NCBI GenBank assembly: GCA_001771545.1
Contig: MEUC01000011.1
Location: 10,071-74,070 of the forward strand
Reading direction: 5' to 3'
Length of the DNA: 64,000 nucleotides
From: a candidate division WOR-1 bacterium RIFOXYB2_FULL_42_35
Lineage (GTDB): Bacteria > Margulisbacteria > WOR-1 > O2-12-FULL-45-9
The translations under genes and the position numbers were made by a program. The notes beneath the pieces were generated by a model. The model was given only the letters and a program-made list of their open reading frames with translations. It made no database searches and was not told where the DNA came from. Numbering within the stretch: position 1 is the first letter of the stretch; the number at the start of each line of letters is the position of its first letter. Of the stretch, positions 9,369 to 49,535 are shown in pieces.

Positions 9369-10963
9369 TTATACGTGATGGTTTCTAAACCCGCTTCGTG
9401 CGGTTGACCCCCAAGATTTTTCTCCGCGCATAAAATCAAACAAACCGTGCAGCCGCCAGACAACGTTCATTTGTCTGTAGCAGACATTTTCCAGGATCGC
9501 AAACAAGATTAGAGTAAGGATGTGGTACCAGTGTTTGTACCATTTAAAATTAATATCTTCATAAAGCACAGCTAACATTGAGAGAAAAGTCCCCCACAGG
9601 ATAGAAACTGCCAGAAAAAGAAAAAACCAGGGCCAGTGCACTGCACCTGTAATAAAACTGTATAGTATATATCACTACTGTCCCAACGTTTGAATTTTTG
9701 ACGTAAATCCTCCAACCCTCTCGACGAGATATAAACTCCAGAACTCAAAAACTGATTTCAAATCGACTACATTCATGATTGCCAGATATCCCTTACCCAT
9801 CAAGCATTACAACGTTTCGACCCCTTCAACGATGGGACGCTAGTGAGTATATATATGTAGCCAATACCCTCAACAATCGGCCCCATAAATTCAAATAAAA
9901 AGAAAAACGGCAAGCTAAACAAGCCTATACTGCCGTACCTGGGATTAAACAACATCTTTTCATGTTTTTGCAAAACGCCAGTCAGCCCCCGATGCCAGCG
10001 GTTTCTTTGTTTGGCCAACGCTTTTATTGTGGACGGAACTTCAGTCCAACAAATAGGATAGGCTCTGAATTTAACTTCATAATCCCTTTTCTTTTCCCTC
10101 ATCGTCCTGTGAACCCTGGTAATAAACTCAAAATCCTCTCCAATCGCGTTGGGGTCATAGCCGCCCATTTCCCTAGCCATGGTAGTGTTGTAAAGGCTAA
10201 AAGCACCAGATGCTATGGGCAATGATTTCAGCAAAGAAAAACCTGTCCTGCCAGCAGTAAAAGCCCTGATATATTCGAGGATCTGAAATATTACCAAGGG
10301 ATTTCTGCTCATCCTAATCTCTTTTACCTGGCCATCCTCCAAATCGCAGTCATTCATCACGCGGATAATACCGCCCACACCTACTACTTTGTTAGGGTTC
10401 TCGTATATCGGCTTCATTATTCTTAACAAGGCATCCCCCTGAAGTATCGCATCTCCGTCCAGGCTGGCAAAATACGGATAATGGGCCGCATTAATCCCGG
10501 CATTGAGGGCGTCAGCTTTTCCTCCGTTTTGCTTGTCAATAACAATTAGGTTGGAGTCTCTTTCCGTAACATAATAGCCTTTAACTGGTTTGCATCTTGC
10601 ATGGGTGCGCAACCTCTTGAATGTTTTTATTAGTCCAAATTCTTTAGCCAGGATTTCCAGCGTGTCATCTGTGGAGCCGTCGTTTACAACGATGATTTCA
10701 AATCTGGGATATTGAAGATTAAGATAACTCCTGACAGAATCTTTGATCAAGACCCTTTCATTGTATGCGCTAACTATTAGTGAAACCCCGGGAGCAAGCT
10801 TGGAATTATTCAAATGCTCATAATCATCGATAAAGGCTCTTCTGTTTTGTATTCTAACCTCAAAAAAAGAGACCAGAAAAACCATCGTATACATTGAGTT
10901 GATCACTAAAAAATACAGTATTACAAAAGCTTCAAATATTATCCTACTATTATTCCAAATCAT
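9369..10963 (-). pseudogene. processive GT2 glycosyltransferase (PgaC/IcaA-like) interrupted by a MITE
   Basis: NDGSTD, GGKADALN, DGD, GED and QRNRW motifs; deleting 9673-9854 (182 bp) restores one 470-aa frame (..GYIYILYSFITGAVHW..). Confidence 0.92.
9673..9845. mobile_element. 173-bp non-autonomous MITE, IS4-like ends
   Basis: TIRs CACTACTGTCCCAACG / CACTAGCGTCCCATCG (13/16); perfect 9-bp TSD AGTATATAT at 9664-9672 and 9846-9854; no transposase. Confidence 0.93.
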
Positions 10964-31703: not shown

Positions 31704-31949
31704 ATGAAAAAACTACACTATTTCACAGCAATCTGCTCTGCCCTGGTTGTTGGGTTGGGTCAAATTATTGAGGGTGAAAGCAAAAAAGGTCTTCTGCTCC
31801 TGTTGGTTTTTTACTTTGCTCTGCCTGCTCTGACCTATTTAGCCTTATTAACTGGTGGCTCCCTCCCTCTTTACATTTGGGGACTAACAATTGTGGCTGG
31901 CTTAATTATTTGGACCTATAGTGTTGGGGAGGCCCTTTTTAAATCATGA
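31704..31949 (+). CDS. small membrane protein
   Basis: SALVVGLGQI..G..KKG pattern; ATGA overlap with the next gene. Confidence 0.7.
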   Translation: MKKLHYFTAICSALVVGLGQIIEGESKKGLLLLLVFYFALPALTYLALLTGGSLPLYIWGLTIVAGLIIWTYSVGEALFKS

Positions 31950-33073
31950 GAAGATCCTTCAAACTATTTACCATTTTTAATATTCCGATTGAGATAAATA
32001 TCAGCTGGTTCATTATTCTCAGCTTGATTGTCTTTACGCTGGCTCGAGGGTATTTCCCTTATACCAATCCAGAACTTTCAACTACTAGCCATTGGTTGAT
32101 GGCGCTAATTGCTGCGCTGCTACTATTTGCCTCACTTTTAGCCCATGAAATGGCCCATTCCTTAGTAGCCATAAAACATCAGCTGCCAATTCATGGCATA
32201 ACTTTATTTGTTTTTGGCGGTGTGGCACAGCTGGAAAAAGAACCGGACTCTCCCGCTGTTGAATTTAGAATGGCCATCGCTGGCCCAATTATGAGTTTTT
32301 CTTTGGCGGTATTGTTTTTTAGCTTAACCAAAACTTTCTACAATTTAGGCTTGCCTTCCCCTATCTTAGCCATTACCAATTATCTTTTTATGCTCAATTT
32401 GGTGGTAGGGATGTTTAACCTTATCCCTGGCTTTCCGCTTGATGGTGGTCGAGTGTTGCGTTCCATACTCTGGGCCTGGTTCAAAGATTTAAGAAGGGCG
32501 ACTAAAATTGCCAGTGCATTCGGCAAAACATTTGCTTTTGTTTTAATTGCCTTTGGTTTGTTTAATTTGTTTTCCGGGGCTTTTGTTTCCGGCATCTGGT
32601 TTATTTTTATCGGCTTATTCTTGCATGAAGCAGCTGGATCAAGCTATCGGCAAGTTGCCATGAAAAAGCTTTTAAGCGGAACAAAAGTAGCAGCGATGAT
32701 GACCAAGAATGTTATAACAGTTCCTGCTGAAATCACTTTAGATAAACTGGTTGACGATTACTTTTTTAAATATCGGCACGCCACTTTCCCAATCATGACA
32801 GATGATAATATTATTGGACTGGTAACTTTTCATGACATCAAAGAAGTAACCAAAGAAAAGTGGTCAACCACAACGGCACAGGACATCATGATTCCACTAA
32901 TTCATGATTTTGTGATTGACGCCCAAGCTGATGTCATGGAAGCCATGCCAATCTTAGCCAGGAACGGCCTGGGTCGCGCACTTATTATCGAAAATAAAAA
33001 ACTGATTGGTATCCTCTCGCAAAAAGATATCCTGCAATTATTTAAGTTTAAGTCGGCGATTGGTGGGAAATAA
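31946..33073 (+). CDS. site-2 protease (M50) with CBS pair
   Basis: HEMAH and NLIPGFPLDGG motifs; C-terminal CBS domains. Confidence 0.95.
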   Translation: MRRSFKLFTIFNIPIEINISWFIILSLIVFTLARGYFPYTNPELSTTSHWLMALIAALLLFASLLAHEMAHSLVAIKHQLPIHGITLFVFGGVAQLEKEPDSPAVEFRMAIAGPIMSFSLAVLFFSLTKTFYNLGLPSPILAITNYLFMLNLVVGMFNLIPGFPLDGGRVLRSILWAWFKDLRRATKIASAFGKTFAFVLIAFGLFNLFSGAFVSGIWFIFIGLFLHEAAGSSYRQVAMKKLLSGTKVAAMMTKNVITVPAEITLDKLVDDYFFKYRHATFPIMTDDNIIGLVTFHDIKEVTKEKWSTTTAQDIMIPLIHDFVIDAQADVMEAMPILARNGLGRALIIENKKLIGILSQKDILQLFKFKSAIGGK

Positions 33074-35933: not shown

Positions 35934-37895
35934 TTATTCGTAACGCAAAGCAACAATTGGCAAGAGCTTGGCCGCCCGCCAGGCTGGCCAGAGACCAAAG
36001 ACTACTCCAACTAAAACCGAGAAAGTAAAAGCCAGGATGATCGAACCTAAAGAAATTAAAACATTCCAACCGGCAAAGGTAGCCAAGCTAAAACTAATCA
36101 ACGAACCAAAGCCAATCCCCACAATCCCGCCAAAAAGACAGATTAAAATCGACTCAACCAAAAACTGGACCATAATATCACTTTTCTCCGCTCCCAAAGC
36201 CTTGCGCAGGCCTATTTCATGAGTCCGCTCCATCACCATCACCAGCATGATATTCATAATCCCAATACCACCAACCAGTAAGCTGACCGCAGCAATCGCC
36301 CCTAAAAGATAGGCCAAGGTTGAGATCATTTCGCCGGCTGCCTTTTGAATCTCCGCCATATTACGAACTTCAATACTATCGCTTTGAGACTCTGGTAAGC
36401 GATGCAGTTTCACCAGCTGCACGATGATTTCATCCTGAACATACTGCATTGAATTTAGATCACTAACCTGAACGTCAAAGTAGCTAATATAATCACTGCC
36501 TAACAAACGATACATCGCTGTTTTTATCGGAATAACTATTTGATCATCAACATTACGCCAGCCAGAGACCCCTTTTTCCGGCATCACACCAATAACATTA
36601 AAGCTGACCTTATTAATGCGAATCCATTTCCCCACAGGATTTTCGGCACCAAACAATTCAGTTGCCACCGTTTTACCAAGCACAGCAACTTTGGCTCGGC
36701 TGGCAGCCTCTGCGGCTGTAAAAAACCGGCCAATATCCGGCACAGATTCACGCACATACTGAAAATCGTAATTGGAACCAACAATTGAAGTATTCCAGTT
36801 ACGATTTTGATAAACCGCCTGTCCTCGACCGCTAACATACGGCGCCACCTTTTCAACTGATTCAATTTGCTCGATCACAGCTAAATCAGCAAAGGTAAAA
36901 CGAGTTACAGAATCTGAGCCCAGGGAAATTCCATGACTGCGCTGTGAAGTTCGCACCATCAATAAGTTTGTGCCTAAACCGGAGAGTGTCTTCTCCATAG
37001 CCTTTTGCGCCCCTGTGCCTAAGGCCAACATGGTGATAACTGCAGCTACGCCAATCATCACCCCTAAAATAGAAAGGAAAGAGCGTAATTTATTATTTAG
37101 CAGAGATAAAGTTGCTTCATAGCAATAATCCTTAAGGCGCCCAAAAGAAAAAACACTTTTCCCTTTCTTATCTCCCCAATTAAAGACAGGAACAGAAGTT
37201 TTTATCCCGGGTTGTTTTCGATCGTCAGATAAAATACTGCCATCACGCAAAGTGATAATTCGTGAGGCATGGGCAGCCACATCGTGCTCATGCGTAACCA
37301 TGATAATCGTATTGCCTTGGGCATTAAGTTCTTTTAATAAATCAATGATTTCTTGCGACGATTTTGAGTCGAGGTTCCCGGTTGGTTCATCCGCCAGGAT
37401 AACTAACGGCTTATTAGCTAAGGCACGGGCAATGGCCACTCGCTGCTGCTGCCCACCAGAAAGTTCATTAGGCCTATGATGTAAGCGGTCTTCCAAACCA
37501 ATTTTCTTTAATACTTCGACACTGCGCTGACGGTTCTCTTTTGAGGCTTCGCCGGCATAGATAAAAGGCAACATGGTATTATCGGTAACATTGAGTTTGG
37601 GCAGGAGATTGAACATTTGAAAAATAAAACCAAAAAAGCGGTTGCGCAAACGGGCATACTCATTTTCAGTTAACCCGGTAATATCCTTGCCCAGCAATTT
37701 ATACTCACCGTTATCGGCATTGTCCAGCAGACCTAAAATCGCCAGCAGGGTTGACTTACCGGAACCGGAAGCCCCCATAATCGCCACGAATTCGCCTGCC
37801 TCAATCTTAAGGGAAACGCCCTGTAAGGCATGGACAGGCAGGTTGCCGCCAATATAGTAAGTCTTAACAATAGAATTGAGTTCAATTAAAGACAT
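35934..37895 (-). CDS. macB: MacB-type fused ABC ATPase-permease
   Basis: [16 protein letters not shown] and [22 protein letters not shown] motifs. Confidence 0.95.
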
Positions 37896-38887
37896 TAGTT
37901 TTTCTTGGTAAAGGGATTAATTGGCCCCCGACGACCAGTCTCCGGAAAAAGTTCCTTGGTCAGCTTCGAAGTCGGAACAACCAACGTTTGACCATCAGCA
38001 AGCCCGGAGAGCACCTCAAGATCAGTAGTATTTTCTAATCCAACTGATATTTTAACGGCTTTAATCTCTTTGGATTCTTGATCACCAGTAAAAACATAAG
38101 CCTGCCCCTTGACCTTTTTGACAACTTTGAGAGGAACCAGCAAAGCATTGGCTTTCTCATTCAAAACAAAATCCACGGTAGCGCTCATCCCCGACCTAAA
38201 AAACGGGGGCACTTCATTTGGAATAACATCAACCGTATAAACGGTGACATTACTTATTTCTTCGGCTTCATAAGCAATGTGGGAAACATAACCGGGAATT
38301 TTCTTACCCTGATAAGCGTCAAGTTCAATGGCAACTTTTTGTTTAAGCTTGATCTGACCAATATCAGTTTCATCTACCTGAGCTTCAACGATTAAACGAT
38401 CAGCCATAACCAAGATGGGATCAGCTGCTGTTACAGATTGTCCCGGCTCAATATCCCTTTTAACAATAAAACCGTTGAGGGGTGCAATGATTGGCGCCGG
38501 CTTATAAATATCCTGCCAATGTTTATATTCATCTTCTCCTTGAGACCTGGCAGCATCCAACAAAGTTGCCCTCTCACTGGAGCTCATCCAGGCTAAAACC
38601 TGTCCAGTCCAAACCTTTTGTCCTTCTGTGACTAAAACACTGTCAAGCCGTCCGGCAATTGGCGGTTTTATTTCTACACGATTTCTAGGCAAAACAATCC
38701 CTGTCGAAGGCAGGGTTGCCAAAATATTGCCCCGTTTAACTTTAACGAATTTGAGAGGCTCTTCACTCTTGCCAGCACAACCAAACAATAAAAGAACCAA
38801 TCCCAAAACAAAAAAAGTCAGAAACTTTGTCTTAAAATAATTAATTCCATAATTTTGATCTTTGATTTTTGATCTTTGATTTTTCAT
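37895..38887 (-). CDS. macA: MacA-type periplasmic adaptor (lipoprotein-like signal)
   Basis: LLFGC, IIAPLNG, VDETDI and FRSGMSA motifs. Confidence 0.88.
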   Translation of the reverse strand: MKNQRSKIKDQNYGINYFKTKFLTFFVLGLVLLLFGCAGKSEEPLKFVKVKRGNILATLPSTGIVLPRNRVEIKPPIAGRLDSVLVTEGQKVWTGQVLAWMSSSERATLLDAARSQGEDEYKHWQDIYKPAPIIAPLNGFIVKRDIEPGQSVTAADPILVMADRLIVEAQVDETDIGQIKLKQKVAIELDAYQGKKIPGYVSHIAYEAEEISNVTVYTVDVIPNEVPPFFRSGMSATVDFVLNEKANALLVPLKVVKKVKGQAYVFTGDQESKEIKAVKISVGLENTTDLEVLSGLADGQTLVVPTSKLTKELFPETGRRGPINPFTKKN

Positions 38888-40113
38888 TTTTTAGTCCCTC
38901 CATAAGCTTTATACCAGCTCGCTTCAGCCAAATAGGCAGCCTTGCGATAGGTTAGCAGGTTGTTTTGAGCCGCAACATAATCGTTTTCTATTCTATCCCA
39001 ATCATCATAATTGATTAATCCATTTAAGTATTTTGCACGAGCAATTATTGCCCGCTCCTTAGCCGCAGCCAGTGAAACAGTTTTAACCTCTAAAGCTTCT
39101 AGGGCATCACTAAAATCACTATAAGCTTTTTGAACACTATAGCGCAGATCATTTTCAGACTGCTTAAAATCCTGTTCGGCCTTTTCCAGTTTTAAGTTAT
39201 AGATCATGGCATCAGCGATATTGCTACCACCAGGAAAGAAAGAATAAGACAGACTTAGTGTCCAACTACTGTTTTCTGAATTTGGCGGCCAGCTGTTACC
39301 ACGATTACTATAATTAGCACCTAAAGAAACTGAAGGGAGAAATCCGGCAATAGTGGCGTTCTTGGCAATTTGGGCAGATTCCAACTGATATTTAGCCATA
39401 ACATAGCTCGGTGACCTTTTAACCAGCTGATCAAAATTATCTTGACTAACAGCTTCTACGGAACCCAAATCCTGCAAATCATCAACATTTTGTTCAATTA
39501 GTTGCGACAGATTAAGTTTGGCTAAGGCCAGATCCCTTTTGGCTGCAGCAAAATCATATTCCGCCTGCGCTTGATCAGCTTGAGTCCGCATCAAATTACC
39601 CTTATCTTCCTTGCCACTTTTATAGCGCAAAGCAATTAGGCGCGCGTTGCTAATCCGTTGTTCCAGGATTTTTTCTAGGATAGCAACATTCTCCTGGGCA
39701 AAAAATAGGTCTAAGTAAGCTGAACGAATATTATAAGAAAACTCGGCTTCAGCCTTCTTTAAACTGGACTCATAATATTTTAGGTCGGCGTAGGCTGACT
39801 GCACATTGTAATAATTGTCTAGGCCGTCAAAAATAGATTGCGTGGCGCTTAAACCATAAGAATAAGTTCTCGCCGCAGCCCCAAAGCTGGCACTGGTTGA
39901 TAAATTAGCAGACAATTGCGGAAGATAACTTGAATAAGCTTTTTTATATGTCCACTGATACGATTCCAGTTGTTTCTGGGCACTTTTTAAATCGTGGTTT
40001 TTTTCGCGGGCTAAAGATTCTACTTCCGACCAATTCAAAGCAAAAACAACAGAGGAACAAACAACCATTGCTGTAATTAAAAAAAACTTCAGATGTTGCT
40101 TCGCATCACACAT
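38884..40113 (-). CDS. TolC family outer-membrane efflux protein
   Basis: Two OEP repeats (YLPQLS, FLPSVS; RYKSG, KYLNG). Confidence 0.92.
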   Translation of the reverse strand: MCDAKQHLKFFLITAMVVCSSVVFALNWSEVESLAREKNHDLKSAQKQLESYQWTYKKAYSSYLPQLSANLSTSASFGAAARTYSYGLSATQSIFDGLDNYYNVQSAYADLKYYESSLKKAEAEFSYNIRSAYLDLFFAQENVAILEKILEQRISNARLIALRYKSGKEDKGNLMRTQADQAQAEYDFAAAKRDLALAKLNLSQLIEQNVDDLQDLGSVEAVSQDNFDQLVKRSPSYVMAKYQLESAQIAKNATIAGFLPSVSLGANYSNRGNSWPPNSENSSWTLSLSYSFFPGGSNIADAMIYNLKLEKAEQDFKQSENDLRYSVQKAYSDFSDALEALEVKTVSLAAAKERAIIARAKYLNGLINYDDWDRIENDYVAAQNNLLTYRKAAYLAEASWYKAYGGTKK

Positions 40114-40164
40114 AACACATTACTCTTTACTCATTACTTATCAGTCTTTCCACTCATCATTATA

Positions 40165-40193
40165 TTAGACATCCGAGAAAAAGGAAAGGTTCC
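40165..40193 (-). promoter_or_regulatory. ECF-type promoter for tolC-macA-macB
   Basis: Minus strand GGAACC-N17-GTCTAA; same TGTCTAA -10 as at 20521 and 21781. Confidence 0.75.
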
Positions 40194-40235
40194 TTTTTAA
40201 TTCTAACAGTCCGGCTGTCATTTCCCCTCCTCGGC

Positions 40236-40282
40236 TTGACAAATATTACTTAACCGGTTAAACTATTTATCAGGTTAACTAT
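40236..40282 (+). promoter_or_regulatory. sigma70 promoter with candidate MarR operator
   Basis: TTGACA-N17-TAAACT; palindrome TTAACCGGTTAA (40250-40261) and related CAGGTTAACTAT downstream. Confidence 0.7.
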
Positions 40283-40286
40283 TTTT

Positions 40287-42173
40287 ATGGCTAAAAACAT
40301 CAAAGAATATGCTGATAAATTCGAAAGCGTTATGCAGGGCTTTATTAAAACCCTGCACTCCTCATCCGACTCTTCCCAGCCCAACAACCTGGATATAACC
40401 ATTGGCCAATGTCTTGTTTTACAAAATCTATATCAAAACGACAACTGCAAAATGTCCGACCTAAGCAAAGCCCTTGGCGTTACCCTCCCCAACATAACCG
40501 GACTAATTGATCGGCTAGAAAAAGAAGGCTTGGCAAAAAGAAACCACGACCCAAAAGATCGTCGCATAATTAGAATCACTCTCACAACAAAAGGCAAAAA
40601 AACCATCAAAAAGATCAAACAAAAAAAGCAGCAGCATCTCAGCTCAATTCTTGGTAAAATAACAAACAAAGAGAGGAAAACATTAATGGAAATCATGGAG
40701 AAAATTGCCGCGAAGCTAAAAAAAACCTGCGCTATCGTCACAATAGCCCTGCTCTGTTCCGGAGCTGTCTTTGCCAATAGTACGTTGAGCCTGGACGAAT
40801 TCATCAAAACAGCCGTTAAAAATAACCCTCAATACCGAATCTCTGCCCAGGACTATCTAATTGCCTTAGAACAAAACAAATCGGCCAATTCCCTACAGGA
40901 CTGGAACTTGGTAGCTTCAGGGTATTTTAACGAGGCAAACCCACCGCAAGCCAGCTCTTTCTCCCCCAGCTACCAAAAAATTGCCAGCTACTCATTTGGA
41001 GCCAGCAAATACCTGGCGGCATCAGGAACCGGCATTGAAATTAAAAACAGTAATACCAGAATGGCAGCCAATTATGGCTCAGCCAGTGCATTTTTTCCCA
41101 CCTCACCCTATTACACTTCTAATTTATCATTAACCATTACACAACCACTCCTGCGTAATGCTTTTGGCCTGGCAACAAGAAACAACCTGGCCATGGCCGA
41201 TAGCGCCCTGTCCATTGCCAAAGTCAAACTAAGTGAGGACTGGGAAAACTTTCTTACTACCCTAAAAGAAGAATACTTTAAATGGCAGTTGTGTCATTTA
41301 AACATTACCAATTACCAAACTAAAGTCAAAAAAGTTGAGGATCAGCTGGCCTTGGTAAAAAAACAGAACCGCTACGGTTTGTCAGAAGATCTTGACCTGG
41401 TGCAAATCGAACAAAAACTCCAAGGCTACAAAATTATGCTGGCACAAGCTGAAATGGCTTGCGATAACCAAACAGAGAAAGTCCTGGGTTTGATTAAAAA
41501 ATCCAACCTTGACTATCCCACCATTAGCCCGGAAAAATTCGTTAAAGACGGTACCGTGCTGCCAAAAGAGCAAGCCATAGCTTACCTGCTTAACAACTCC
41601 AATTTAAAACAAACCACTGATCTTTTGGTCAAGATACAACAGCAAAATCTCAACTCCAAAGACAACCAATTACTGCCCGACCTTAACTTAATTGCCCAGT
41701 ATAAGCCCAACGCCTTAACTTACAATTTTAGCGACAGTGTTATGCGGGTTGGCAGTAAAAGCGAATACAGCATTACCCTAAGTGCTTCCAGGACATTAGC
41801 CAACGACCAGGCCAACGCCGAAGCTAACAAAGCCAAGGCAGAATACGAAAAAGTCTTAAAAATTCAGGACAACACCCTGCTTAATGCCCAAGTTGGCCTG
41901 ACCAATCTCTACACCACCCTCTCTTATTTAGATAGTATGCTGGAGCTTAATAAACAGAGCTTAAAATTGGCCCAAGAACGGTTAACACTGGAACAAAAAA
42001 AGTTTAATCAGGGCCGTAGTTCGGTCTTTTTTGTCCTGCAAGCTGAAGATGATGTTTTGGCCGCAGACAATACTTATCTGGAAATACTTTTTAACCGCGA
42101 AAAGGTTATCAATCAAATTAAATCATTTACTGACCGTTATTTAATTGAATACAAGGAGCTGCTAAAAATATGA
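40287..42173 (+). CDS. MarR-TolC fusion protein
   Basis: MarR wHTH (ITGLIDRLEKEGL..DPKDRR..LTTKG), then KKTCAIVTIALLCSGAVFA signal, then TolC repeats; no stop between them. Confidence 0.9.
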   Translation: MAKNIKEYADKFESVMQGFIKTLHSSSDSSQPNNLDITIGQCLVLQNLYQNDNCKMSDLSKALGVTLPNITGLIDRLEKEGLAKRNHDPKDRRIIRITLTTKGKKTIKKIKQKKQQHLSSILGKITNKERKTLMEIMEKIAAKLKKTCAIVTIALLCSGAVFANSTLSLDEFIKTAVKNNPQYRISAQDYLIALEQNKSANSLQDWNLVASGYFNEANPPQASSFSPSYQKIASYSFGASKYLAASGTGIEIKNSNTRMAANYGSASAFFPTSPYYTSNLSLTITQPLLRNAFGLATRNNLAMADSALSIAKVKLSEDWENFLTTLKEEYFKWQLCHLNITNYQTKVKKVEDQLALVKKQNRYGLSEDLDLVQIEQKLQGYKIMLAQAEMACDNQTEKVLGLIKKSNLDYPTISPEKFVKDGTVLPKEQAIAYLLNNSNLKQTTDLLVKIQQQNLNSKDNQLLPDLNLIAQYKPNALTYNFSDSVMRVGSKSEYSITLSASRTLANDQANAEANKAKAEYEKVLKIQDNTLLNAQVGLTNLYTTLSYLDSMLELNKQSLKLAQERLTLEQKKFNQGRSSVFFVLQAEDDVLAADNTYLEILFNREKVINQIKSFTDRYLIEYKELLKI

Positions 42174-45100
42174 GAAACCTATTTAAATACTTTATTGAAC
42201 ATCCCAAATTAGTTAACCTCTTCCTTGTACTGGTCATTATTATGGGCAGTCTCTCTTTTATTAATCTTAAACGTGACAGCATCCCTAACGTTGATTTCAA
42301 GATGATGTTTGTCAGCACAATTTATCCCGGAGCCGCACCAGAAGACGTAGAAATCAATGTCACGATTCCCATCGAAGAACAAATCCAAAGGGTAACCGGT
42401 ATTAAAGATTTGCAATCGTTTTCAACAGAAAACATCTCCACAATTTTTATTGAAATTGACCCGGACGCCAAAGATGTGGAAGAGGTTAAGCGTGATATTT
42501 ACAAAGCTGTTGATCGTGTTGCTAATTTGCCGCCGCAAGTCAAAGATAAGCCCTTGGTCATTGAGCTAAAATCAGAGGTCTTTCCTGTCTTTGAAATTGC
42601 GGTTTCCGGCAACGGCAATACCTCTGAATTAAATCTAAGAAAATATGTTGATATTTTGGATAAAAAAATCCGGCTTCTAGCCGGAGTAAGCGGCACAAAA
42701 TTAGTCGGCTACCGCAAACGGGAGATCAGAGTCGAAGTTGACCCGCAAAAGCTGGAAGATCAATATGTTTCGCTGGCCGAAGCTATGGCTGCAATTAAAG
42801 CTACTAATGTACGCCTAAGCGGTGGCACCATCCAATCTTTAGCTGCTAAGAAAAAAGTTATTACCCTGTCCCAATTTGATAATCCCCTTGAGGTAAAAGA
42901 GGTAATAGTCCGCTCGGCCTTTTCCGGTCAACGTTTAATTATAAAAGACCTTGCCAAAGTTTCCGACAGTTTTGAAGACGAATCTAGATTAATTAAAACT
43001 AACGGCAATAAGTGCATTAATATAGTAGTGGATAAAAAAGCGACTGCCGATGCCGTTAAAGTTGCCGGTTCAGTCTCACAACTGCTAAAAAAATTCAACC
43101 AGGACTTGCCTCAAGGCATCAAGGCCCAAGTTGTTAAAGATTATTCTGTTTACGTAAAAACAATGCTTAGCGTAGTTATCTCCAATGCCTTATTTGGTTT
43201 TTTTCTGGTTGTCATCTGCTTAATGATTTTCCTGGATATCCGGGTCGCCTTTTGGACGGCGATGGGTATTCCCTTTTCTCTGCTGGTGGCTTTTTATTTT
43301 ATGCCGATTTATGATGTCGCCGTCACCACCCAGGCACTACTCGCTTTTGTAATTGTTTTGGGTATGCTGGTAGATGATGCCATTGTGGTGGCTGAACATA
43401 TTTTTTCCTATCGGGAAGAAGGCCTAGATGCCGTGGAAGCTTCTTTACGAGGAGTCAGCGAAGTCTTTTGGCCGGTCTGCGCTACAGTTGCTACCACCAT
43501 TGCCGCTTTCCTGCCTATTTTACTGATGGGCGGTATTTGGGGTGATTTTATTAGGGCCATACCGATTGTTATTACCGTTACTCTTTTGGCCTCACTGTTT
43601 GAAGCCGCCTTTATCCTGCCGGCACATTTAGCCGGCACCAAGCTAAAACAAAAAGGCAAGCCAAAACTTCTGGTCTTTTTAGAAAATTGGTATCGCCGTA
43701 ATCTCATTAGAGTTTTAAAGAAAAAAAATCTCTTTATCGGGCTTTTTATTTTAATCTTTATTTTTTGCACCGCTGTTATTCTTCCCAAACTTGGGTTTGT
43801 GCTTTTTCCTTCTTCAGACAATGATGTTGTTCAAATCAAGATTGAAACCCCTAAAGGGACCCCTCTTTATGAAACCGAGCATCGGGTAACTGAAATAGAA
43901 AAAATCATTACAGCAACAGTCCCTGAAAATATATTAGCGAGCTATGTTACCACTATTGGCGAAAAAGGGACTGATATGTGGGACACTGTTTCCGGCATGA
44001 CACAAGACCATTGGGCCAGGATAGCAGTTAATCTTATTCCAGCCCAAAAAAGGAAAATCTCGGCAAAAAATCTAGCCCAGCAGCTGCAGGTTAAACTAGA
44101 AAAACTTAAACAGTCTGACAAATTTACTGACGTTGCTGTAATTGCCCTGCGCGGCGGCCCGCCTAGCGGCAGCCCAATTGACCTGACTTTTATTGGCAAT
44201 AACGATGAGATCAGAACCAATTTAGCCGATGAATTGGTCACCTTCCTAAAAAATACCGATGGGGTTTATGATCTTGATCGCAATGACGAAAAAGGCTTAA
44301 AAGAGCTCAACATTAAACTTAATTACAATTTGATGTCTGATCTAGGCATCACAGCCCTTGATGTGGCTCAAGTAGTAAGGGCGGCAATTGCCGGCACAGT
44401 TGTAACCTCTATCCGCAAAGAAGGCGAAGAAATTGATTTCAGAGTAATGCTAGCAGAACCGTACCGCAACAACCCCGAATATATCAAAGAATTAACAATT
44501 CCCAACCGTTTCGGTAAACTAATCAGCTTAGGCAGCTTTATCCGCTTTGAGGAAAAGATCTCTGCCCTGGGCATTCCCCATATGCAAGGAGATCGCTCGG
44601 TTAAGATCACCGCTGAAATAGATCAGAAAAAACTAAACTCCAAGGAATTTAATCTGGTTTTAAAAAATAAATTTGCGCCCCTGGCCTTAAAATATCCCGG
44701 TTTTAGGCTGGAGTTTGGCGGCGAAGAAAAGATCGCCAATGATTCATTGTCTAGATTTTTTCGCTCTATGATTATTGCCCTGGTAGTAATCTATATTATC
44801 CTGGTGGTATTGTTTAACTCTTTTACCGAGCCAATGATCGTAATGACAGCCATTCCCTTTGGTCTGGTGGGAGTGATTTTGGCTTTTGCTCTACATCGCG
44901 AACCGTTAAGCTTTTTAGCCTTGATCGGGATTCTGGGCTTATCGGGTGTAGTTGTTAATAATTCCCTGGTTATGCTCGAATTTTTAAACAATGAAGAAGA
45001 AAGGGTTTGTGATCAGGGAGAAAAATTAACCCTAGAACATATTGCTGATGCAGCTAAATTAAGATTTAGGCCAATCATCCTAACAACCGTTACAACTGTG

Positions 45101-45283
45101 GCTGGCATAATCCCTTCTCTCTATGGTTTCCTTGGCGGCCGGGTAGACTTTTTGTTCCCCCTACTGCTAGCTTTAAGCTGGGGACTGCTCTTTTCCACCT
45201 TTATCACGCTGTTTTTGATCCCGTGTTTTTATCTGGTGGAAAAAGATGTCACTTGTTGGCTGTCTAGCAAATTAAAAAAATAA
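42170..45283 (+). CDS. RND efflux permease (AcrB family)
   Basis: GMLVDDAIVVAE, GVVVNNS and RFRPIILTT motifs; 1037 aa. Confidence 0.96.
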   Translation: MRNLFKYFIEHPKLVNLFLVLVIIMGSLSFINLKRDSIPNVDFKMMFVSTIYPGAAPEDVEINVTIPIEEQIQRVTGIKDLQSFSTENISTIFIEIDPDAKDVEEVKRDIYKAVDRVANLPPQVKDKPLVIELKSEVFPVFEIAVSGNGNTSELNLRKYVDILDKKIRLLAGVSGTKLVGYRKREIRVEVDPQKLEDQYVSLAEAMAAIKATNVRLSGGTIQSLAAKKKVITLSQFDNPLEVKEVIVRSAFSGQRLIIKDLAKVSDSFEDESRLIKTNGNKCINIVVDKKATADAVKVAGSVSQLLKKFNQDLPQGIKAQVVKDYSVYVKTMLSVVISNALFGFFLVVICLMIFLDIRVAFWTAMGIPFSLLVAFYFMPIYDVAVTTQALLAFVIVLGMLVDDAIVVAEHIFSYREEGLDAVEASLRGVSEVFWPVCATVATTIAAFLPILLMGGIWGDFIRAIPIVITVTLLASLFEAAFILPAHLAGTKLKQKGKPKLLVFLENWYRRNLIRVLKKKNLFIGLFILIFIFCTAVILPKLGFVLFPSSDNDVVQIKIETPKGTPLYETEHRVTEIEKIITATVPENILASYVTTIGEKGTDMWDTVSGMTQDHWARIAVNLIPAQKRKISAKNLAQQLQVKLEKLKQSDKFTDVAVIALRGGPPSGSPIDLTFIGNNDEIRTNLADELVTFLKNTDGVYDLDRNDEKGLKELNIKLNYNLMSDLGITALDVAQVVRAAIAGTVVTSIRKEGEEIDFRVMLAEPYRNNPEYIKELTIPNRFGKLISLGSFIRFEEKISALGIPHMQGDRSVKITAEIDQKKLNSKEFNLVLKNKFAPLALKYPGFRLEFGGEEKIANDSLSRFFRSMIIALVVIYIILVVLFNSFTEPMIVMTAIPFGLVGVILAFALHREPLSFLALIGILGLSGVVVNNSLVMLEFLNNEEERVCDQGEKLTLEHIADAAKLRFRPIILTTVTTVAGIIPSLYGFLGGRVDFLFPLLLALSWGLLFSTFITLFLIPCFYLVEKDVTCWLSSKLKK

Positions 45284-45307
45284 ATGGTAATATAAATACC
45301 TTCATAT

Positions 45308-45382
45308 GGCGGCCTTGGTGTAGTGGCAACACAACAGATTGTGATTCTGTCGTTGCGGGTTCAATTCCCGCAGGCCGCCCCA
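45308..45382 (+). tRNA. tRNA-His(GTG)
   Basis: G-1, acceptor GCGGCCT/AGGCCGC, anticodon arm ACAGA-TTGTGAT-TCTGT, discriminator C, encoded CCA. Confidence 0.96.
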
Positions 45383-45383
45383 G

Positions 45384-45461
45384 GGTTAGAAAGTAGATAG
45401 TGGATATTAGAAATTAGGAATGAAAAACACTATCCTATTTTCTACACTCTACGCTCCACTT
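45384..45461. repeat. inverted degenerate heptamer array (xxTAGAx / xTCTAxx)
   Basis: gttagaaagtagatagtggatattagaaattagg ... ctatcctattttctacactctacgctccac. Confidence 0.65.
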
Positions 45462-45462
45462 T

Positions 45463-46101
45463 TTACTTCACTAAATTAATTCTCCAGGGCAAAGATCTTC
45501 TTACTATTTCTTCCAGACTTTTATTCCCTTTTATTTCCGATGTTGGCTGGGGCATCTCTTTTAACCTATTATTTTCTGGCCCAACATTTAGATCATCAAG
45601 GTCTGGTGGCAAAACTCTTATGACTGGCTCAGCTTCTCTTTTTACCGGTTGCCATTTTATAGGAAGCTTAATATCAGGTAAACTTGCTGTTTGCTCTGGG
45701 TATGCTTTTAAATCATCTGGGTCTGCAGGCAAAGCTCTTATGACTGGTTCTTCAAGGGCTTCTGGGTTCGCTGGTATAGCCCTAAATACCGGTTCTTGCT
45801 CATCCGGGTTTTCTGGCAAAGCTGGCAAAGCTCTTATGACTGGTTCTTCAAGGTCTTCTGAGTTCGCTGGTATAGCCCTAAATACCGGTTCTTTAAGCTC
45901 ATACGGGTTTTCTGGCAAAGCTGGCAAAGCCCTTATAACAGGTTCTTTTCCCACCAGAGAGACAAAGTCCTGGAAATCCTCCCCACTAATTCCTGGGTTT
46001 TCTGATTGGCAAGTTTTTCCATCCTTATTCTTATCCAAAGCCTTTACTGCCTTTTTGAAACCAGGCTTAACATCACCCGTATTTATACATAAATCTCCCA
46101 T
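45463..46101 (-). CDS. orphan protein with EF-hand leader and EPV(I/F)RA(L/I)PA tandem repeats
   Basis: DKNKDGKTCQSE loop; about 6 repeat units; SD AGGAG. Confidence 0.75.
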   Translation of the reverse strand: MGDLCINTGDVKPGFKKAVKALDKNKDGKTCQSENPGISGEDFQDFVSLVGKEPVIRALPALPENPYELKEPVFRAIPANSEDLEEPVIRALPALPENPDEQEPVFRAIPANPEALEEPVIRALPADPDDLKAYPEQTASLPDIKLPIKWQPVKREAEPVIRVLPPDLDDLNVGPENNRLKEMPQPTSEIKGNKSLEEIVRRSLPWRINLVK

Positions 46102-46857: not shown

Positions 46858-48003
46858 CTAAACCATAATAATTTTAGCCGGCGGAAACCCGTTAAAACCC
46901 GGAACCGCACTAGCACACGAGTAAGCCCCGATATTTTTAACGTAAACAATATTGCCAACCTCCAACTCCGGTAAATCTTCACTAATGGAAATAGTGTCAA
47001 AAGAATCACAAGTTGGGCCAGCCAAAGTACTTAAAAATTTCTGGCCGCGCCTTAAAGTCTTAAACTCATAACGACAATGATCAAAAACAATCCCGGAAAA
47101 ATCGGCATAAACACCATCATTGAGATAATAATAGTTTTTATTGTTGCGAAAAGTTCTACCCACAACTTGCGTAATCAGGGTGCCGGCTAACCCGGCAAAA
47201 AATCGCCCCGGCTCGGCAATAAAGTTCGTATCCTTGGCAAACAAACGGCGTAGCTTTTTTCGTAAATGTTTGGCCATGTCCTTAAAGGTAATATGGTTAT
47301 CACTGTCAAAATGACGAATCGGAAAACCACCGCCAATATCAAGGGTGTCTAATTTTAAACCGTAACGCTCTGCCTCATTAAATATGGCGGCTGAAACCTC
47401 CAAAGCCTGTAAGTAATTCTCCACATTAGTACACTGCGAACCAACATGAAAAGAGACCCCGGCCGGCTTTAAACCCAAGGACTTAGCCTTGCGTAACAGA
47501 AAGACCGACTGATCAGGGTCAGCGCCAAACTTAAGGGATAATTCAACCGTACTGCCAATATTACTAACCTTAATACGCACCAAAACCCCGGCTCCGGGAC
47601 AATACTTGGCAATCTTATAAAGTTCCGGTTCATTGTCAAAGGTCATAAAGCGGACTTTCTTTTTATAAGCCTCGGCAATATCCCGGTTAGACTTTATCGT
47701 ATTAGCAAAAATCACCTTATCAGGAGAGGCTCCCAAAGAAAGAACCTGATTCATCTCCACAGCACTAGCCACATCAAAACCAGCTCCAAGCTTCACAAAG
47801 GTTTTAATAATTTCCGGATGGGGATTAGCCTTAATGGCATAATAAGGGGTGACGTCAGGAAGATATCTGGTAAAACGCTCATATTGCTGACGCAGGGCTT
47901 CACGATTAATTAACATTAACGGGGAACCGTATTTCTTAACGGCATTGCGGATAGTTTTTTCTAAACCGCCGCGACCAGAAGCTTTAGCACCTTTAGTGGT
48001 CAT
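46858..48003 (-). CDS. ornithine/lysine decarboxylase (PLP fold III)
   Basis: YAIKAN, SFHVGSQ, DIGGG, EPGR and GPTCDSFD motifs. Confidence 0.93.
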   Translation of the reverse strand: MTTKGAKASGRGGLEKTIRNAVKKYGSPLMLINREALRQQYERFTRYLPDVTPYYAIKANPHPEIIKTFVKLGAGFDVASAVEMNQVLSLGASPDKVIFANTIKSNRDIAEAYKKKVRFMTFDNEPELYKIAKYCPGAGVLVRIKVSNIGSTVELSLKFGADPDQSVFLLRKAKSLGLKPAGVSFHVGSQCTNVENYLQALEVSAAIFNEAERYGLKLDTLDIGGGFPIRHFDSDNHITFKDMAKHLRKKLRRLFAKDTNFIAEPGRFFAGLAGTLITQVVGRTFRNNKNYYYLNDGVYADFSGIVFDHCRYEFKTLRRGQKFLSTLAGPTCDSFDTISISEDLPELEVGNIVYVKNIGAYSCASAVPGFNGFPPAKIIMV

Positions 48004-49535
48004 GCAAATAAATTCAAAGGCTCGCCTTTTTTGCAGGCCTCTATCATTGCCTTTGCCTCATTTTCCGGTAGTAAATCAACTTTGTTGGTTAAAAATGTAG
48101 AAAATTGCCAGACATCTTCTTCAGGCGGTCTGGGCATATCATATTTTGTAAACTTGGTGTTAAGATTTTTTAAAGGGGTCCAATCAACTGCCTTAGAAAC
48201 AAAGGGGCTAATATAAGGCATCGAAATTCTAAGTATTTCTTCAAAATCAATATCATCCGGCATACGAAAACCCATCTTAGGATTTTTAATCATCCAAATA
48301 GCAGCAGCTACAACAGAAACAGCTACTTGCATAGTAGTTGCTTGTTGATGCGGCACCAGTTTTCTGGAAGTGTGGATATCAAGAATACTGCCGCACCACC
48401 AGGAATTAAAATCATGACCCATTAAAAGCACGCCTAGTTGATCCTCCCCATCAATAATTTCGTCGTTCATAATACGTTGTTTTTCTTGTAAATGAAATTG
48501 CCGCATTTCCAGCTCGCGCAAAGAATTAATTGCCGCATTAGATGGACAATAGGCATAATGCACCGTAGGCCGATAGACTGCTTCCCCATTTTCCCAGACG
48601 GTTAAGCGATCAGAAATACTAAAGGCTTCACCATGGCGAATAACCATGCCAATAATTTCACCACAAGGCACCCAAGAACGCACTACTGTTCTCATCCCAA
48701 GAGAGCGCAGGCAAATCTGGTTTCTCGGCCCGGTCTTATGGAAGAAAGCAGTTTTGGGAATATTTCTCTCGTGAGTTCCCCAACCTAATTCTGCCGGCGC
48801 CACCCCCTCCTCATAAAAACCTTCTATACTCCAGGTATTAACGAATTCGTTAACCTGTTTGGGCCGATCTGTAATTTGGGTATCCCGCTCAGAAATATGG
48901 ATAACCTTAACCCCTTCAAGCTGCGCCAGCTTAGCAAAGTTTTTCTCACTCAAAGCATCTTCTAAACTCTTCTTGCGTGGATCATGAGGTTTTTCTTGTA
49001 AGATTTTATTAGCAATCCCAATTAAAGCATGTTTTGTGAAATGTGACACCAAGCCAGGATTAGCACCATGGTCAACAACTGCCGAAGTCCCCTTATTATC
49101 ACCCCAACGCTTGACCATGTCTTTAAGCTGCATATGACGTTGATACAAGGTATATCTGGTGGGATCATTGCGTTCTTCATCTTTATAGGGATTCCATTCT
49201 TCCACGGAAGTATTAACATATAAAATTTGATTGTTGCGGCAATAAGTTAGCATTGACTCGCAATCAATGTTCCAGGCCAAATCAACAATTAGATCACCAG
49301 CCCCAACATATTTTTTTAAAAGTTCCTTGTAATTATCTTTGGTAACTTTATCATTAACATAGGTAACCCCTTTAGCAAGAGAATCTTTAACGCGGGCTCG
49401 ATTATCAACAAAATCCATAATAGTGATATTTTGAGGGGGAACATCGATTAATTGCAAGACAATGGGTACCGCACATTGCGAAACAGAACCACAACCAATG
49501 ATCAGGATCTTACCGGGAAATTTGACATGCTTCAT
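48000..49535 (-). CDS. hss: homospermidine synthase
   Basis: GCGSV, HGANPGLVSHF, HISERDTQ, EFVNTWSIEG, HGEA and YRPTVHYAY motifs. Confidence 0.95.
   Translation of the reverse strand: MKHVKFPGKILIIGCGSVSQCAVPIVLQLIDVPPQNITIMDFVDNRARVKDSLAKGVTYVNDKVTKDNYKELLKKYVGAGDLIVDLAWNIDCESMLTYCRNNQILYVNTSVEEWNPYKDEERNDPTRYTLYQRHMQLKDMVKRWGDNKGTSAVVDHGANPGLVSHFTKHALIGIANKILQEKPHDPRKKSLEDALSEKNFAKLAQLEGVKVIHISERDTQITDRPKQVNEFVNTWSIEGFYEEGVAPAELGWGTHERNIPKTAFFHKTGPRNQICLRSLGMRTVVRSWVPCGEIIGMVIRHGEAFSISDRLTVWENGEAVYRPTVHYAYCPSNAAINSLRELEMRQFHLQEKQRIMNDEIIDGEDQLGVLLMGHDFNSWWCGSILDIHTSRKLVPHQQATTMQVAVSVVAAAIWMIKNPKMGFRMPDDIDFEEILRISMPYISPFVSKAVDWTPLKNLNTKFTKYDMPRPPEEDVWQFSTFLTNKVDLLPENEAKAMIEACKKGEPLNLFA

Follow-up and report, generated by a model that had tools for sequence, protein, structure and literature searches.

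A MarR repressor fused in frame to a TolC-type channel, probably a tolerated accident in an efflux operon without an adaptor gene

The window, the whole stretch of 64,000 nucleotides analysed here, carries an efflux operon whose first gene is a single 628-aa frame that holds a complete MarR domain, then a cleavable-looking signal sequence and then a full TolC-type channel. An earlier, sequence-only reading had described this MarR/signal/TolC frame, and we find it at 40287..42173 with every sequence feature listed there. The locus comprises the following features.

35934..40113, minus strand: divergent neighbour operon with an OEP (38884-40113), a HlyD/RND_mfp-type adaptor (37895-38887) and a MacB-type ABC pump (35934-37895); from ORFs and profiles.
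40236..40264, plus strand: sigma-70-like promoter of the marR'-'tolC-RND operon, TTGACA at 40236-40241, a 17-nt spacer and TAAACT at 40259-40264; from the consensus match.
40242..40286, no strand: probable MarR operator, a 45-bp inverted repeat; geometry conserved in relatives, binding predicted.
40250..40261, no strand: 12-bp palindrome TTAACCGGTTAA within the left arm of the larger repeat; from the sequence.
40287..42173, plus strand: fused marR-tolC ORF, 628 aa; from the ORF list and Pfam.
40287..40715, plus strand: MarR domain, aa 1-143 (winged helix 37-95; end of the last helix ...IMEKIAAK); from Pfam and alignments.
40671..40697, plus strand: candidate internal translation start, GAGAGG at 40671-40676, ATG 40686 (M134) and ATG 40695 (M137); from the sequence.
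40713..40775, plus strand: junction and internal signal sequence K143-A163; from alignment with relatives' signal peptides, hydropathy and the junction DNA.
40776..42173, plus strand: mature TolC-type outer-membrane channel N164-I628 (465 aa) and stop; from Pfam OEP, the Atlas model and conserved columns.
42170..45283, plus strand: RND inner-membrane pump, 1037 aa; from Pfam ACR_tran and the nearest solved chains.

The Pfam profile PF01047 matches aa 37-95 of the fused protein with 58.7 bits (cut-off 24.6) and is covered over all of its 59 positions. Residues 4-142 align with residues 2-139 of the stand-alone 146-aa MarR protein P0074, and residues 33-141 with 36-144 of the 150-aa chain 2rdp_A, one of the solved MarR proteins matched. 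As judged from these alignments, the MarR part is a full-length fold of about 140-150 aa that includes the predicted N- and C-terminal dimerisation helices. In NCBIfam, MprA was among the weak best matches (48.8 bits, under its cut-off). A PDB sequence search with the whole protein gave 74 matches, the 60 best of which were all MarR chains with no OEP chain among them. Annotation pipelines name the fused ORFs simply 'TolC family protein', which hides the repressor.

The channel part is matched by PF02321 with 100.5 bits (cut-off 22) in two stretches, corresponding to tandem OEP repeats, and the NCBIfam models of the TolC and NodT subfamilies stay far under their cut-offs (46.5 versus 225 and 37.3 versus 210, respectively). 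The Atlas model (pLDDT 0.77) matches TolC-family clusters over 447-470 residues with TM values that range by row from 0.81 to 0.88; on this model, the channel part has the TolC fold. Downstream, the RND protein matches PF00873 (ACR_tran) with 602 bits, aa 5-1023 lying on profile positions 2-1019 of 1021. Its nearest solved chains are MdtB, MexK, MtrD-like and AcrB, with end-to-end matches to MdtB, MexK and AcrB. By sequence, the RND gene is intact and encodes a full-length AcrB-type permease with 12 predicted helices and two large periplasmic loops. It fits no curated multidrug subfamily: all NCBIfam equivalog models were far under their cut-offs, and the best NCBIfam model, RND_permease_2, reached 534.9 bits where 1250 are required. 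As the sequence-only reading had stated, tolC ends and RND begins within one ATGA (42170-42173); AAGGAG lies 10 nt ahead of the RND start.

The promoter matches the consensus at 10 of 12 positions and ranks first among 13 promoter-like sites in 40050-45600; its TTGACA and TAAACT/TAAGCT boxes can be lined up in each of the five loci compared, and the five aligned promoters share 24 invariant columns. Over it lies an inverted repeat with arms of 21 nt (40242-40262 and 40266-40286, 76% complementary) around the 3-nt centre CTA, which spans the -10 box and the probable transcription start and runs as far as the marR ATG. The same geometry is found ahead of marR in the related loci L013 (20-nt arms, 85%, 3-nt gap) and L042 (22-nt arms, 86%, 3-nt gap), and the half-site pattern has its sole zero-mismatch match at this operator. 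The 45-bp repeat is therefore likely to be the operator bound by MarR. The 12-bp palindrome, previously taken for the likely operator, is indeed present as a single exact copy in the window, inside the best promoter of the region and overlapping the -10 box; the homologous bases are non-palindromic in L007, L009, L012 and L013, and the palindrome makes up just a portion of the left arm in the conserved larger repeat. In Escherichia coli emrRAB, the MarR-family repressor (MprA/EmrR) is likewise the first gene of an efflux operon that it represses. The present operon resembles emrRAB-type operons in that a MarR gene heads a pump operon with an inverted-repeat operator over its own promoter, and differs in that the repressor is fused to the channel, the pump is of the RND rather than the MFS type and there is no adaptor gene.

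At the junction, the segment K143-A163 (KLKKTCAIVTIALLCSGAVFA) reads as an n-region KLKK, an h-region TCAIVTIALLC and a c-region SGAVFA, with predicted cleavage at A163|N164. The hydrophobic core T147-A163 comprises about 17 residues, has an 11-residue Kyte-Doolittle peak of 2.55 and ends in V-F-A before N164; core length and V-F-A together look like a cleavable signal peptide rather than a permanent anchor. In 11 stand-alone TolC relatives, the sequence that aligns with this segment is the N-terminal signal peptide, though in the fused protein the segment stands behind 143 residues. Leu144 (CTA, 40716-40718) occupies the position of the relatives' tolC start codon, and no purine-rich box precedes this CTA. 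A run of eight A residues follows at 40718-40725; a homopolymer error there was rejected, since a +1 or -1 slip brings the frame to a stop 17 or 6 codons further on, with no start remaining for TolC, so that two genes are not restored. The internal Shine-Dalgarno-ATG pair reported ahead of the signal is present, with GAGAGG 9 nt before ATG 40686, and is joined by a second in-frame ATG at 40695. Both ATGs and GAGAGG lie inside the last MarR helix, where GAGAGG supplies the codons for E-R in a conserved MarR motif and M137 corresponds to the conserved Met of IMEKI; coding constraint therefore accounts for these bases as well, and 40686 and 40695 are candidate starts.

Related marR-tolC-RND cassettes occur in Margulisbacteria-type MAGs and in Omnitrophota, at 43-52% protein identity. 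In all six related loci with an upstream marR (L007, L009, L012, L013, L042 and L032), marR and tolC are separate genes: L007, L009, L012 and L013 have separate ORFs of 143-149 aa (marR), 487-497 aa (tolC) and 1035-1055 aa (RND), and the Omnitrophota loci L042 and L032 likewise hold three separate ORFs. The two upstream genes are tightly abutted in the relatives, and in L007 and L009 they share one frame with a single stop between them (...IMEKISKGKD-stop-Y-MIKR and ...IMEKLAKGSK-stop-VKR, respectively). Stand-alone MarR relatives terminate 5-9 residues past the IMEKI/IMEKL motif, and the tolC genes of the relatives have their own Shine-Dalgarno sequence and start. The window junction, IMEKIAAK-L-KKT, is 3-5 codons shorter than those of L007 and L009, has CTA at the start position, no marR stop and, for tolC, neither a ribosome-binding site nor a start codon. 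Judging from the junction length, the lesion was probably a small in-frame deletion; the nearest unfused relative is 59% identical. Compared with the unfused cassettes of L007, L009, L012, L013 and L042, the window thus shares gene order, promoter/operator layout, tight tolC-RND coupling and the lack of an adaptor, and differs in that those loci have the marR/tolC stop and the tolC Shine-Dalgarno and start.

The sequence-only reading had held that a stop or frameshift between marR and tolC in close relatives would overturn the fusion. Relatives do have the stop, but none of them is close, the nearest unfused ones being at most 59% identical; the near-identical records carry the fused junction and no separating stop. 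These are P0001, an identical protein, and P0002, a near-identical one in which 35 residues (208-242) are missing from a conserved part of TolC, both in public protein sets. They are the only fused proteins among 63 homologue matches, 45 of which, at 46-57% identity, are stand-alone TolC, and also the only matches among 617 candidates (lengths 345-1099) when the MarR part (residues 1-165) served as query.

The proposed search for MarR+OEP architectures in other genomes did find them, as infrequent single cases dispersed among unfused sisters. Public protein sets contain eight or nine other MarR-signal-OEP fusions: all eight long matches tested contain MarR and OEP, and P0216 is a further case. 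The fused proteins of other lineages, examined as protein, are P0077, P0078, P0095, P0104, P0107, P0114, P0121, P0143 and P0216; P0078 is encoded on a 187,731-bp NCBI contig. Four of them (P0078, P0104, P0114 and P0143) have kept the TolC initiator Met at the junction. Among the Omnitrophota-type OEPs listed, three of 120 are fused, and the fused share over the three lists is 2/63, 3/120 and 9/150, each fused form having one to three member sequences. Fused P0078 shares 64-65% identity with unfused P0197 versus 54% with fused P0216. In an OEP tree of 246 rows, the eight fused tips require seven changes and their nearest relatives are unfused, which argues that the fusions are recurrent and shallow rather than a conserved design. 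A large conserved fused family was ruled out with the 30 nearest Atlas clusters of at least 50 members, none of which has MarR (28 are OEP-only and two are without a common family). Literature searches found no paper on a MarR-TolC fusion.

Could marR and tolC be separated by a stop in the real genome and the fused frame be an error of sequencing or assembly? The sequences are derived from metagenomes, this fused form is confined to near-identical records and the A8 run lies at the junction. Against this stands the identical protein on a separate 7,412-bp ENA contig, with three member sequences, as well as the same junction in P0002. Moreover, no single indel restores two genes; one base would not bring back the usual layout, for which a stop is needed as well as a ribosome-binding site and a start codon. 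Independent fusions also occur in other lineages, among them the one on the 187,731-bp contig. We consider such an artefact very unlikely.

Alternatively, the lesion may be real and have inactivated tolC, which would be left with an improper start and a MarR domain blocking export, in a cassette on its way to a pseudogene. The native tolC start and Shine-Dalgarno are indeed lost, P0002 has its deletion in conserved TolC sequence, and a second, complete OEP lies beside the fused operon at 38884-40113. However, the window TolC retains 105 of the 111 columns that are invariant in 11 relatives, within a leave-one-out range of 0.85-1.0 for the relatives themselves, and its end branch in the OEP tree is ordinary (0.36 versus a median of 0.39). 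The 1,665 codons of tolC and RND are free of stops and frameshifts, and the ATGA coupling and the AAGGAG before RND are intact. Decay is accordingly quite improbable, and the retained columns indicate that the window TolC is still under constraint. Being constrained, the channel must be exported, either through cleavage of the precursor by signal peptidase or from an internal start at 40686 or 40695; the sequence favours neither route over the other.

A further possibility is that the fusion is a selected design in which the repressor is tied to export: cleavage would leave a tail-anchored MarR made 1:1 with TolC, and repression would report secretion or pump assembly. The same architecture arose repeatedly: a complete MarR is followed by some 20 hydrophobic residues that include a small-x-small site, and then by an OEP. 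Each recurrence has the whole MarR and an undamaged signal sequence, which can be read as a sign of benefit. In solved MarR structures the termini of the dimer lie opposite the DNA-binding wings, so that tethering to the membrane need not prevent the dimer from binding DNA. According to the survey PMC10269533, regulators of the ToxR/CadC type function from the membrane. As in the fused protein, their winged-helix DNA-binding domain is N-terminal and cytoplasmic and is followed by one hydrophobic segment and a periplasmic part, whereas their segment is a permanent transmembrane helix and their outer part a sensor, in place of a cleavable-looking signal and an outer-membrane channel. The supplement of that survey places Pfam MarR among the DNA-binding domains absent from transmembrane regulators and gives 273 cases for MarR_2; a search of nine of its supplementary files for the string OEP found no occurrence. 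The tree contains no deep fused clade, the fused forms are few, have one to three member sequences each and are missing from the large Atlas clusters, and several retain the TolC start Met, as plain stop loss predicts. A selected design is highly doubtful in light of these comparisons.

We propose instead, with a probability of about 0.7, that the fusion is a tolerated accident in a MarR-autoregulated efflux operon whose junction was recently damaged, and not an evolved regulatory device; by the tree, at least seven independent fusions appear to have occurred in this operon family. The anatomy given by the sequence-only reading was right, and both fates that it considered for the product, a tailed MarR left by cleavage or two nested products, remain available; the comparative data oppose the purposeful coupling of repression to export that it also suggested. 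In the ancestor, marR and tolC would have abutted with coupled translation, probably sharing one frame. The marR stop would then have been lost together with the tolC Shine-Dalgarno and start through a small in-frame lesion, so that ribosomes initiating at 40287 would now continue directly into tolC. Transcription would start from the promoter at 40236-40264, with repression by MarR via the 45-bp inverted repeat over the -10 box.

In such a tolerated fusion, the MarR domain of the 628-aa precursor would fold in the cytoplasm and the internal signal K143-A163 would engage Sec, whereupon signal peptidase I would cut after A163 and free a mature TolC of normal form, destined for the outer membrane. 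MarR would stay attached to the inner membrane by a hydrophobic tail of about 20 residues until this is cleared by proteases that degrade signal peptides; an M50 site-2-type peptidase, encoded at 31946-33070, may be named beside these for tail removal. In parallel, some TolC may be made from ATG 40686 or ATG 40695 with a signal peptide of 27-30 residues, and RND would be translated by coupling at ATGA. There are precedents for either route: the Bradyrhizobium FbcH cytochrome b/c1 precursor is a bacterial polyprotein split at an internal signal peptide, and CheA (long and short) and IF2 (alpha and beta) arise from in-frame nested starts. As in these cases, one ORF is predicted to give two products by signal-peptidase cleavage or internal initiation; unlike them, conserved and experimentally shown as they are, the MarR-TolC fusion is recent, sporadic and known from sequence. 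That all of this adds up to a working polyprotein, with Sec-exported TolC freed by signal peptidase, a tail-anchored MarR made one for one and released or degraded according to signal-peptide proteolysis, operon transcription thereby tied to channel export and the OEP-RND pair acting as a two-part pump without a classical adaptor, is unlikely.

The absence of an adaptor gene from the operon had been pointed out before; this is correct, and it is a conserved trait of this OEP-RND family. No HlyD-family match was found among the 48 other window ORFs scanned, and the only adaptor gene in the window, of the HlyD/RND_mfp type at 37895..38887 on the minus strand, lies 1.4 kb upstream in the divergent operon. 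The adjacency of this OEP-MFP-MacB operon is absent from all related loci scanned. In 17 related loci from several phyla, OEP is followed by RND with no HlyD-family gene nearby: none of 97 neighbour ORFs in 11 related loci is of the HlyD family, and no adaptor was found beside seven further OEP-RND pairs. A hidden adaptor was sought among nine unannotated neighbours of OEP-RND pairs, which gave no HlyD-type match at E up to 1. Hence, across the operon and the neighbours of the related loci, the absence of the adaptor is conserved, and the tripartite arrangement, which calls for an adaptor encoded within the operon or next to the permease, is not found. Like AcrAB-TolC and MexAB-OprM, the system has a full-length AcrB-type permease and a TolC-fold channel; unlike them, it has no adaptor gene in or beside the operon, here or in the 17 related loci. 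Literature searches found no paper on adaptor-free OEP-RND operons.

It seems impossible to route a single chain that joins a DNA-binding protein of the cytoplasm to a channel of the outer membrane, yet by the tree the combination has arisen at least seven times, with the channel under constraint. If the precursor is processed, these proteins would be a natural test of how bacteria deal with an internal signal peptide that a folded domain precedes and of what a MarR with a membrane tail does; if TolC comes only from the internal start, they would show the speed at which a new start replaces a lost one. The adaptor-free OEP-RND pairs, in turn, bear on whether every RND pump of double-membraned cells requires a periplasmic adaptor.

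The fusion of MarR to TolC is real, and odd-looking. A single reading frame encodes a 628-aa product in which Pfam places the MarR domain at aa 37–95 and the outer membrane efflux protein (OEP) domain in two stretches. The MarR part is complete (aa 4–142 align with aa 2–139 of P0074, a stand-alone MarR of 146 aa, and aa 33–141 with solved MarR chains), and K143 is followed by L-KK-TCAIVTIALLC-SGAVFA, with a hydrophobic core at T147–A163 (Kyte–Doolittle peak of 2.55 over 11 residues) and V-F-A just before N164. In alignment, this internal segment matches column for column the signal peptides with which 11 stand-alone TolC relatives begin. Pfam, alignments and hydropathy agree with the sequence-only reading of a full MarR, a signal and TolC in one frame; the candidate internal ribosome-binding site with ATG and the ATGA overlap of the tolC stop with the RND start, both pointed out there, are likewise present, and the operon lacks a membrane fusion protein, the window's sole HlyD-type adaptor gene belonging to a divergent operon. 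AAGGAG lies 10 nt 5' of the RND start. The sizes are ordinary (OEP, 465 mature residues; RND, 1037 aa), and the G+C content of the window is 41%.

Features of the window around the fused marR-tolC frame
31946–33070, + strand: Peptidase_M50 gene (site-2 protease type) with CBS domains
35934–40113, − strand: complete divergent MacB-type export operon; OEP of 409 aa, HlyD/RND_mfp-type adaptor of 330 aa
37895..38887, − strand: the sole HlyD-type gene, within the divergent OEP-adaptor-MacB operon
40178–40198: inverted repeat without mismatches, 9-nt arms AAAAAGGAA / TTCCTTTTT 3 nt apart, intergenic, nearer the divergent operon
40236–40264: best promoter-like site of the region (TTGACA, 17 nt, TAAACT)
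40242–40262 and 40266–40286: arms of an inverted repeat (21 nt, 76% complementary, 3-nt centre) that spans the −10 and reaches the marR ATG
40287..42173, + strand: fused marR-tolC ORF, 628 aa, single frame
40671–40676, + strand: GAGAGG, 9 nt ahead of ATG 40686
40695, + strand: second in-frame ATG
42170..45283, + strand: RND gene, 1037 aa, ACR_tran across the whole profile
45463–46101, − strand: 212-aa ORF with repeats of type EPVIRALPALPENP / EPVFRAIPANPE, convergent with the RND gene
46858–49535, − strand: adjacent Orn/DAP/Arg-decarboxylase-type and saccharopine-dehydrogenase-type genes (Pfam domains), 4-nt overlap

A protein search returned 63 proteins at E ≤ 1e-3; the closest TolC relatives are named Margulisbacteria or Margulisiibacteriota, Saganbacteria, WOR-1 or just 'bacterium' by their sources. 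Two of the 63, P0001 and P0002, combine MarR and OEP. P0001 (three member sequences; a 7,412-bp ENA contig) is identical to the window's protein, and P0002 differs from it by one Q-to-R substitution and the loss of aa 208–242 (window 40908–41012). The 35 residues absent from P0002 include nearly invariant TolC residues; the deletion may reflect variation within the population, decay or faulty assembly. The next 45 proteins (46–57% identity, 394–533 aa) are OEP-only, and the top identity in the species collection of genomes scanned was 53%. Immediately 5' of tolC, marR is found in 6 of 51 related loci (L007, L009, L012, L013, L042 and L032), as a separate ORF in all six. A stop between the genes in close relatives had been named as evidence against the fusion; relatives do have such stops, but none of these relatives is close: the nearest unfused one is at most 59% identical, a distance that puts the ancestral junction DNA beyond reconstruction.

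In L007 the junction stays in one frame (...IMEKISKGKD, TAA, TAT, then ATG-IKR), as it does in L009 (...IMEKLAKGSK, TAA, then GTG-KR); in L012 and L013 marR and tolC overlap by 8 nt in different frames (ATGAATAA, ATGAGTAA). Each of these relatives carries a purine-rich box ahead of the tolC start, within the last marR codons. The window reads IMEKIAAK-L-KKT, with CTA at the position expected for the tolC start, no purine-rich box ahead of that CTA, and four codons between the conserved IMEKI and the two adjacent basic residues of the signal peptide, compared with seven in L009 and nine in L007. We infer a small in-frame deletion that would have taken the stop, ribosome-binding site and start together. 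A wrong base count in the A8 run (40718–40725) was rejected as the cause: read in the two other frames, the sequence meets a stop after 17 or 6 codons, and either shift would leave TolC without a start.

The same architecture, sought in other genomes as the sequence-only reading had proposed, occurs in nine proteins of other lineages. An exhaustive search of 1.84 billion representatives gave 20,276 matches at E ≤ 0.001; phmmer classed the best 150 as 8 MarR + OEP, 44 MarR only and 98 OEP only, and Pfam adds P0143 as a ninth two-part protein. With P0002 left out, these are P0077, P0078, P0095, P0104, P0107, P0114, P0121 and P0143, all eight confirmed as MarR + OEP by Pfam; P0216 is the ninth from other lineages. 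All share one anatomy, the last MarR helix running into about 20 hydrophobic residues with a small-x-small end and then into the OEP. Four junctions retain the TolC initiator Met (P0078, NK-MKK; P0104, EK-MKK; P0114, EK-MRI; P0143, SI-MAK), as would be expected from simple loss of a same-frame stop. Fused P0078 is publicly annotated just as 'TolC family protein', and no source name is recorded for P0095 or P0216; in such records the repressor domain passes unnoticed.

A profile built from the fused proteins recovered 161 proteins at E ≤ 1e-10, with fusions in three of the best 120 (P0078, P0095 and P0216) and the remainder of these OEP-only, mostly named Omnitrophota. P0078 is 64–65% identical to unfused P0197 versus 54% to fused P0216, and pairs with P0197 on a FastTree phylogeny of OEP parts (local support 99%). 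On this tree of 246 rows, from which P0002 (a duplicate of the window) and OEP matches under 380 residues, including P0121, were dropped and P0143 was missing for want of a phmmer OEP match, the eight fused tips require seven state changes, a count that is approximate because the support values of FastTree are purely local and some branches, including P0114, were flagged as long. The identity figures agree in direction. The 30 nearest Atlas clusters of at least 50 members comprise 28 that are OEP-only and 2 without a common family. Since the representatives searched stand for clusters at 50% or 90% identity, a small fused clade within one cluster would stay hidden. On this evidence MarR-TolC fusions are recurrent, rare and shallow, not conserved.

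The window's tolC keeps 105 of the 111 columns invariant in the 11 stand-alone relatives (leave-one-out equivalent for those relatives, 0.85 to 1.0), its end branch on the OEP tree measures 0.36 (median, 0.39), and the RND gene is intact with its coupling to tolC kept; together these indicate that TolC is very probably still made and exported. Because the frame is continuous, ribosomes starting at 40287 yield one chain of MarR, signal and TolC; tolC no longer has its native start. From what is established about Sec export, a hydrophobic stretch this long with V-F-A behind it would direct Sec targeting and be a substrate of signal peptidase I. Cleavage after A163 would release a mature TolC the same as that of the relatives and leave MarR with a hydrophobic C-terminus lodged in the inner membrane. 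Signal peptides left over after cleavage are normally broken down by SppA or by site-2 proteases, and site-2-type M50 enzymes are known to clear them; given the M50 peptidase gene at 31946–33070, the tailed MarR might be freed again by such a protease. By a second route, translation would begin at ATG 40686 or ATG 40695 and produce TolC behind a signal peptide of 27–30 residues. GAGAGG also codes for the residues E-R in a MarR motif that is conserved, and the conserved Met within IMEKI is M137, so these bases are not independent evidence of a start.

An alignment of five promoters has 24 invariant columns, even though protein identity is no more than 43–52%. The inverted repeat at the marR promoter has counterparts of like geometry 5' of marR in L013 (20-nt arms, 85%) and L042 (22-nt arms, 86%); no such pair above thresholds was found in L009 or L012, and L007 has only a short unrelated one. 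The sole exact match to the half-site pattern in the window is this site. A 12-bp palindrome earlier suggested as operator does sit in the left arm of this candidate repeat, but is not palindromic in relatives. In L042, an Omnitrophota locus, the mechanical marR ORF (9812–10366) starts at TTG and overruns the repeat (9856–9902); the true start is more likely an ATG some 34 codons further on (MADRKELE...), and the repeat would then lie just 5' of marR, as in the window.

The OEP gene is directly followed by RND in all ten loci with both (L004, L006, L007, L008, L009, L011, L012, L013, L014 and L042), and none of 97 neighbour ORFs scanned at 11 related loci is HlyD-like. More distant loci (89 ORFs from 13 loci, of which the 56 nearest, from 12 loci, were scanned) supplied seven further adaptor-less pairs (L015, L016, L019, L020, L022, L025 and L036); in L030 the OEP gene is followed by two HlyD genes, L024 and L026 are MacB-type, and in L018 and L043 no RND gene adjoins OEP. 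Unannotated OEP-RND neighbours scanned at E up to 1 gave no adaptor match. The adaptor-less order is common to window 40776–45283 and 17 related loci, with record names of Margulisiibacteriota, Saganbacteria, Omnitrophota, FCPU426 and a Rickettsiales-labelled MAG. This pump family may need no classical adaptor, or may borrow one from elsewhere; a literature search at the level of titles and abstracts found no paper on an OEP-RND module without adaptor.

The divergent MacB operon, 173 bp from the fused operon, was not seen beside marR-tolC-RND in any related locus examined. The repeat at 40178–40198 may be a regulatory site of this OEP-adaptor-MacB operon, or a small hairpin. Downstream of the RND gene, the 212-aa ORF has no Pfam match, and a 167-aa + strand ORF overlapping it is probably spurious. 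The gene pair at 46858–49535, assessed by Pfam domains alone, resembles the carboxynorspermidine route to polyamines.

We interpret the fusion as, most probably, a lesion at the gene junction, recent and tolerated, within a conserved marR-tolC-RND cassette, and not as a new regulatory architecture. Of interest are the way in which the fused chain is routed in the cell, and whether the OEP-RND family works without an adaptor.
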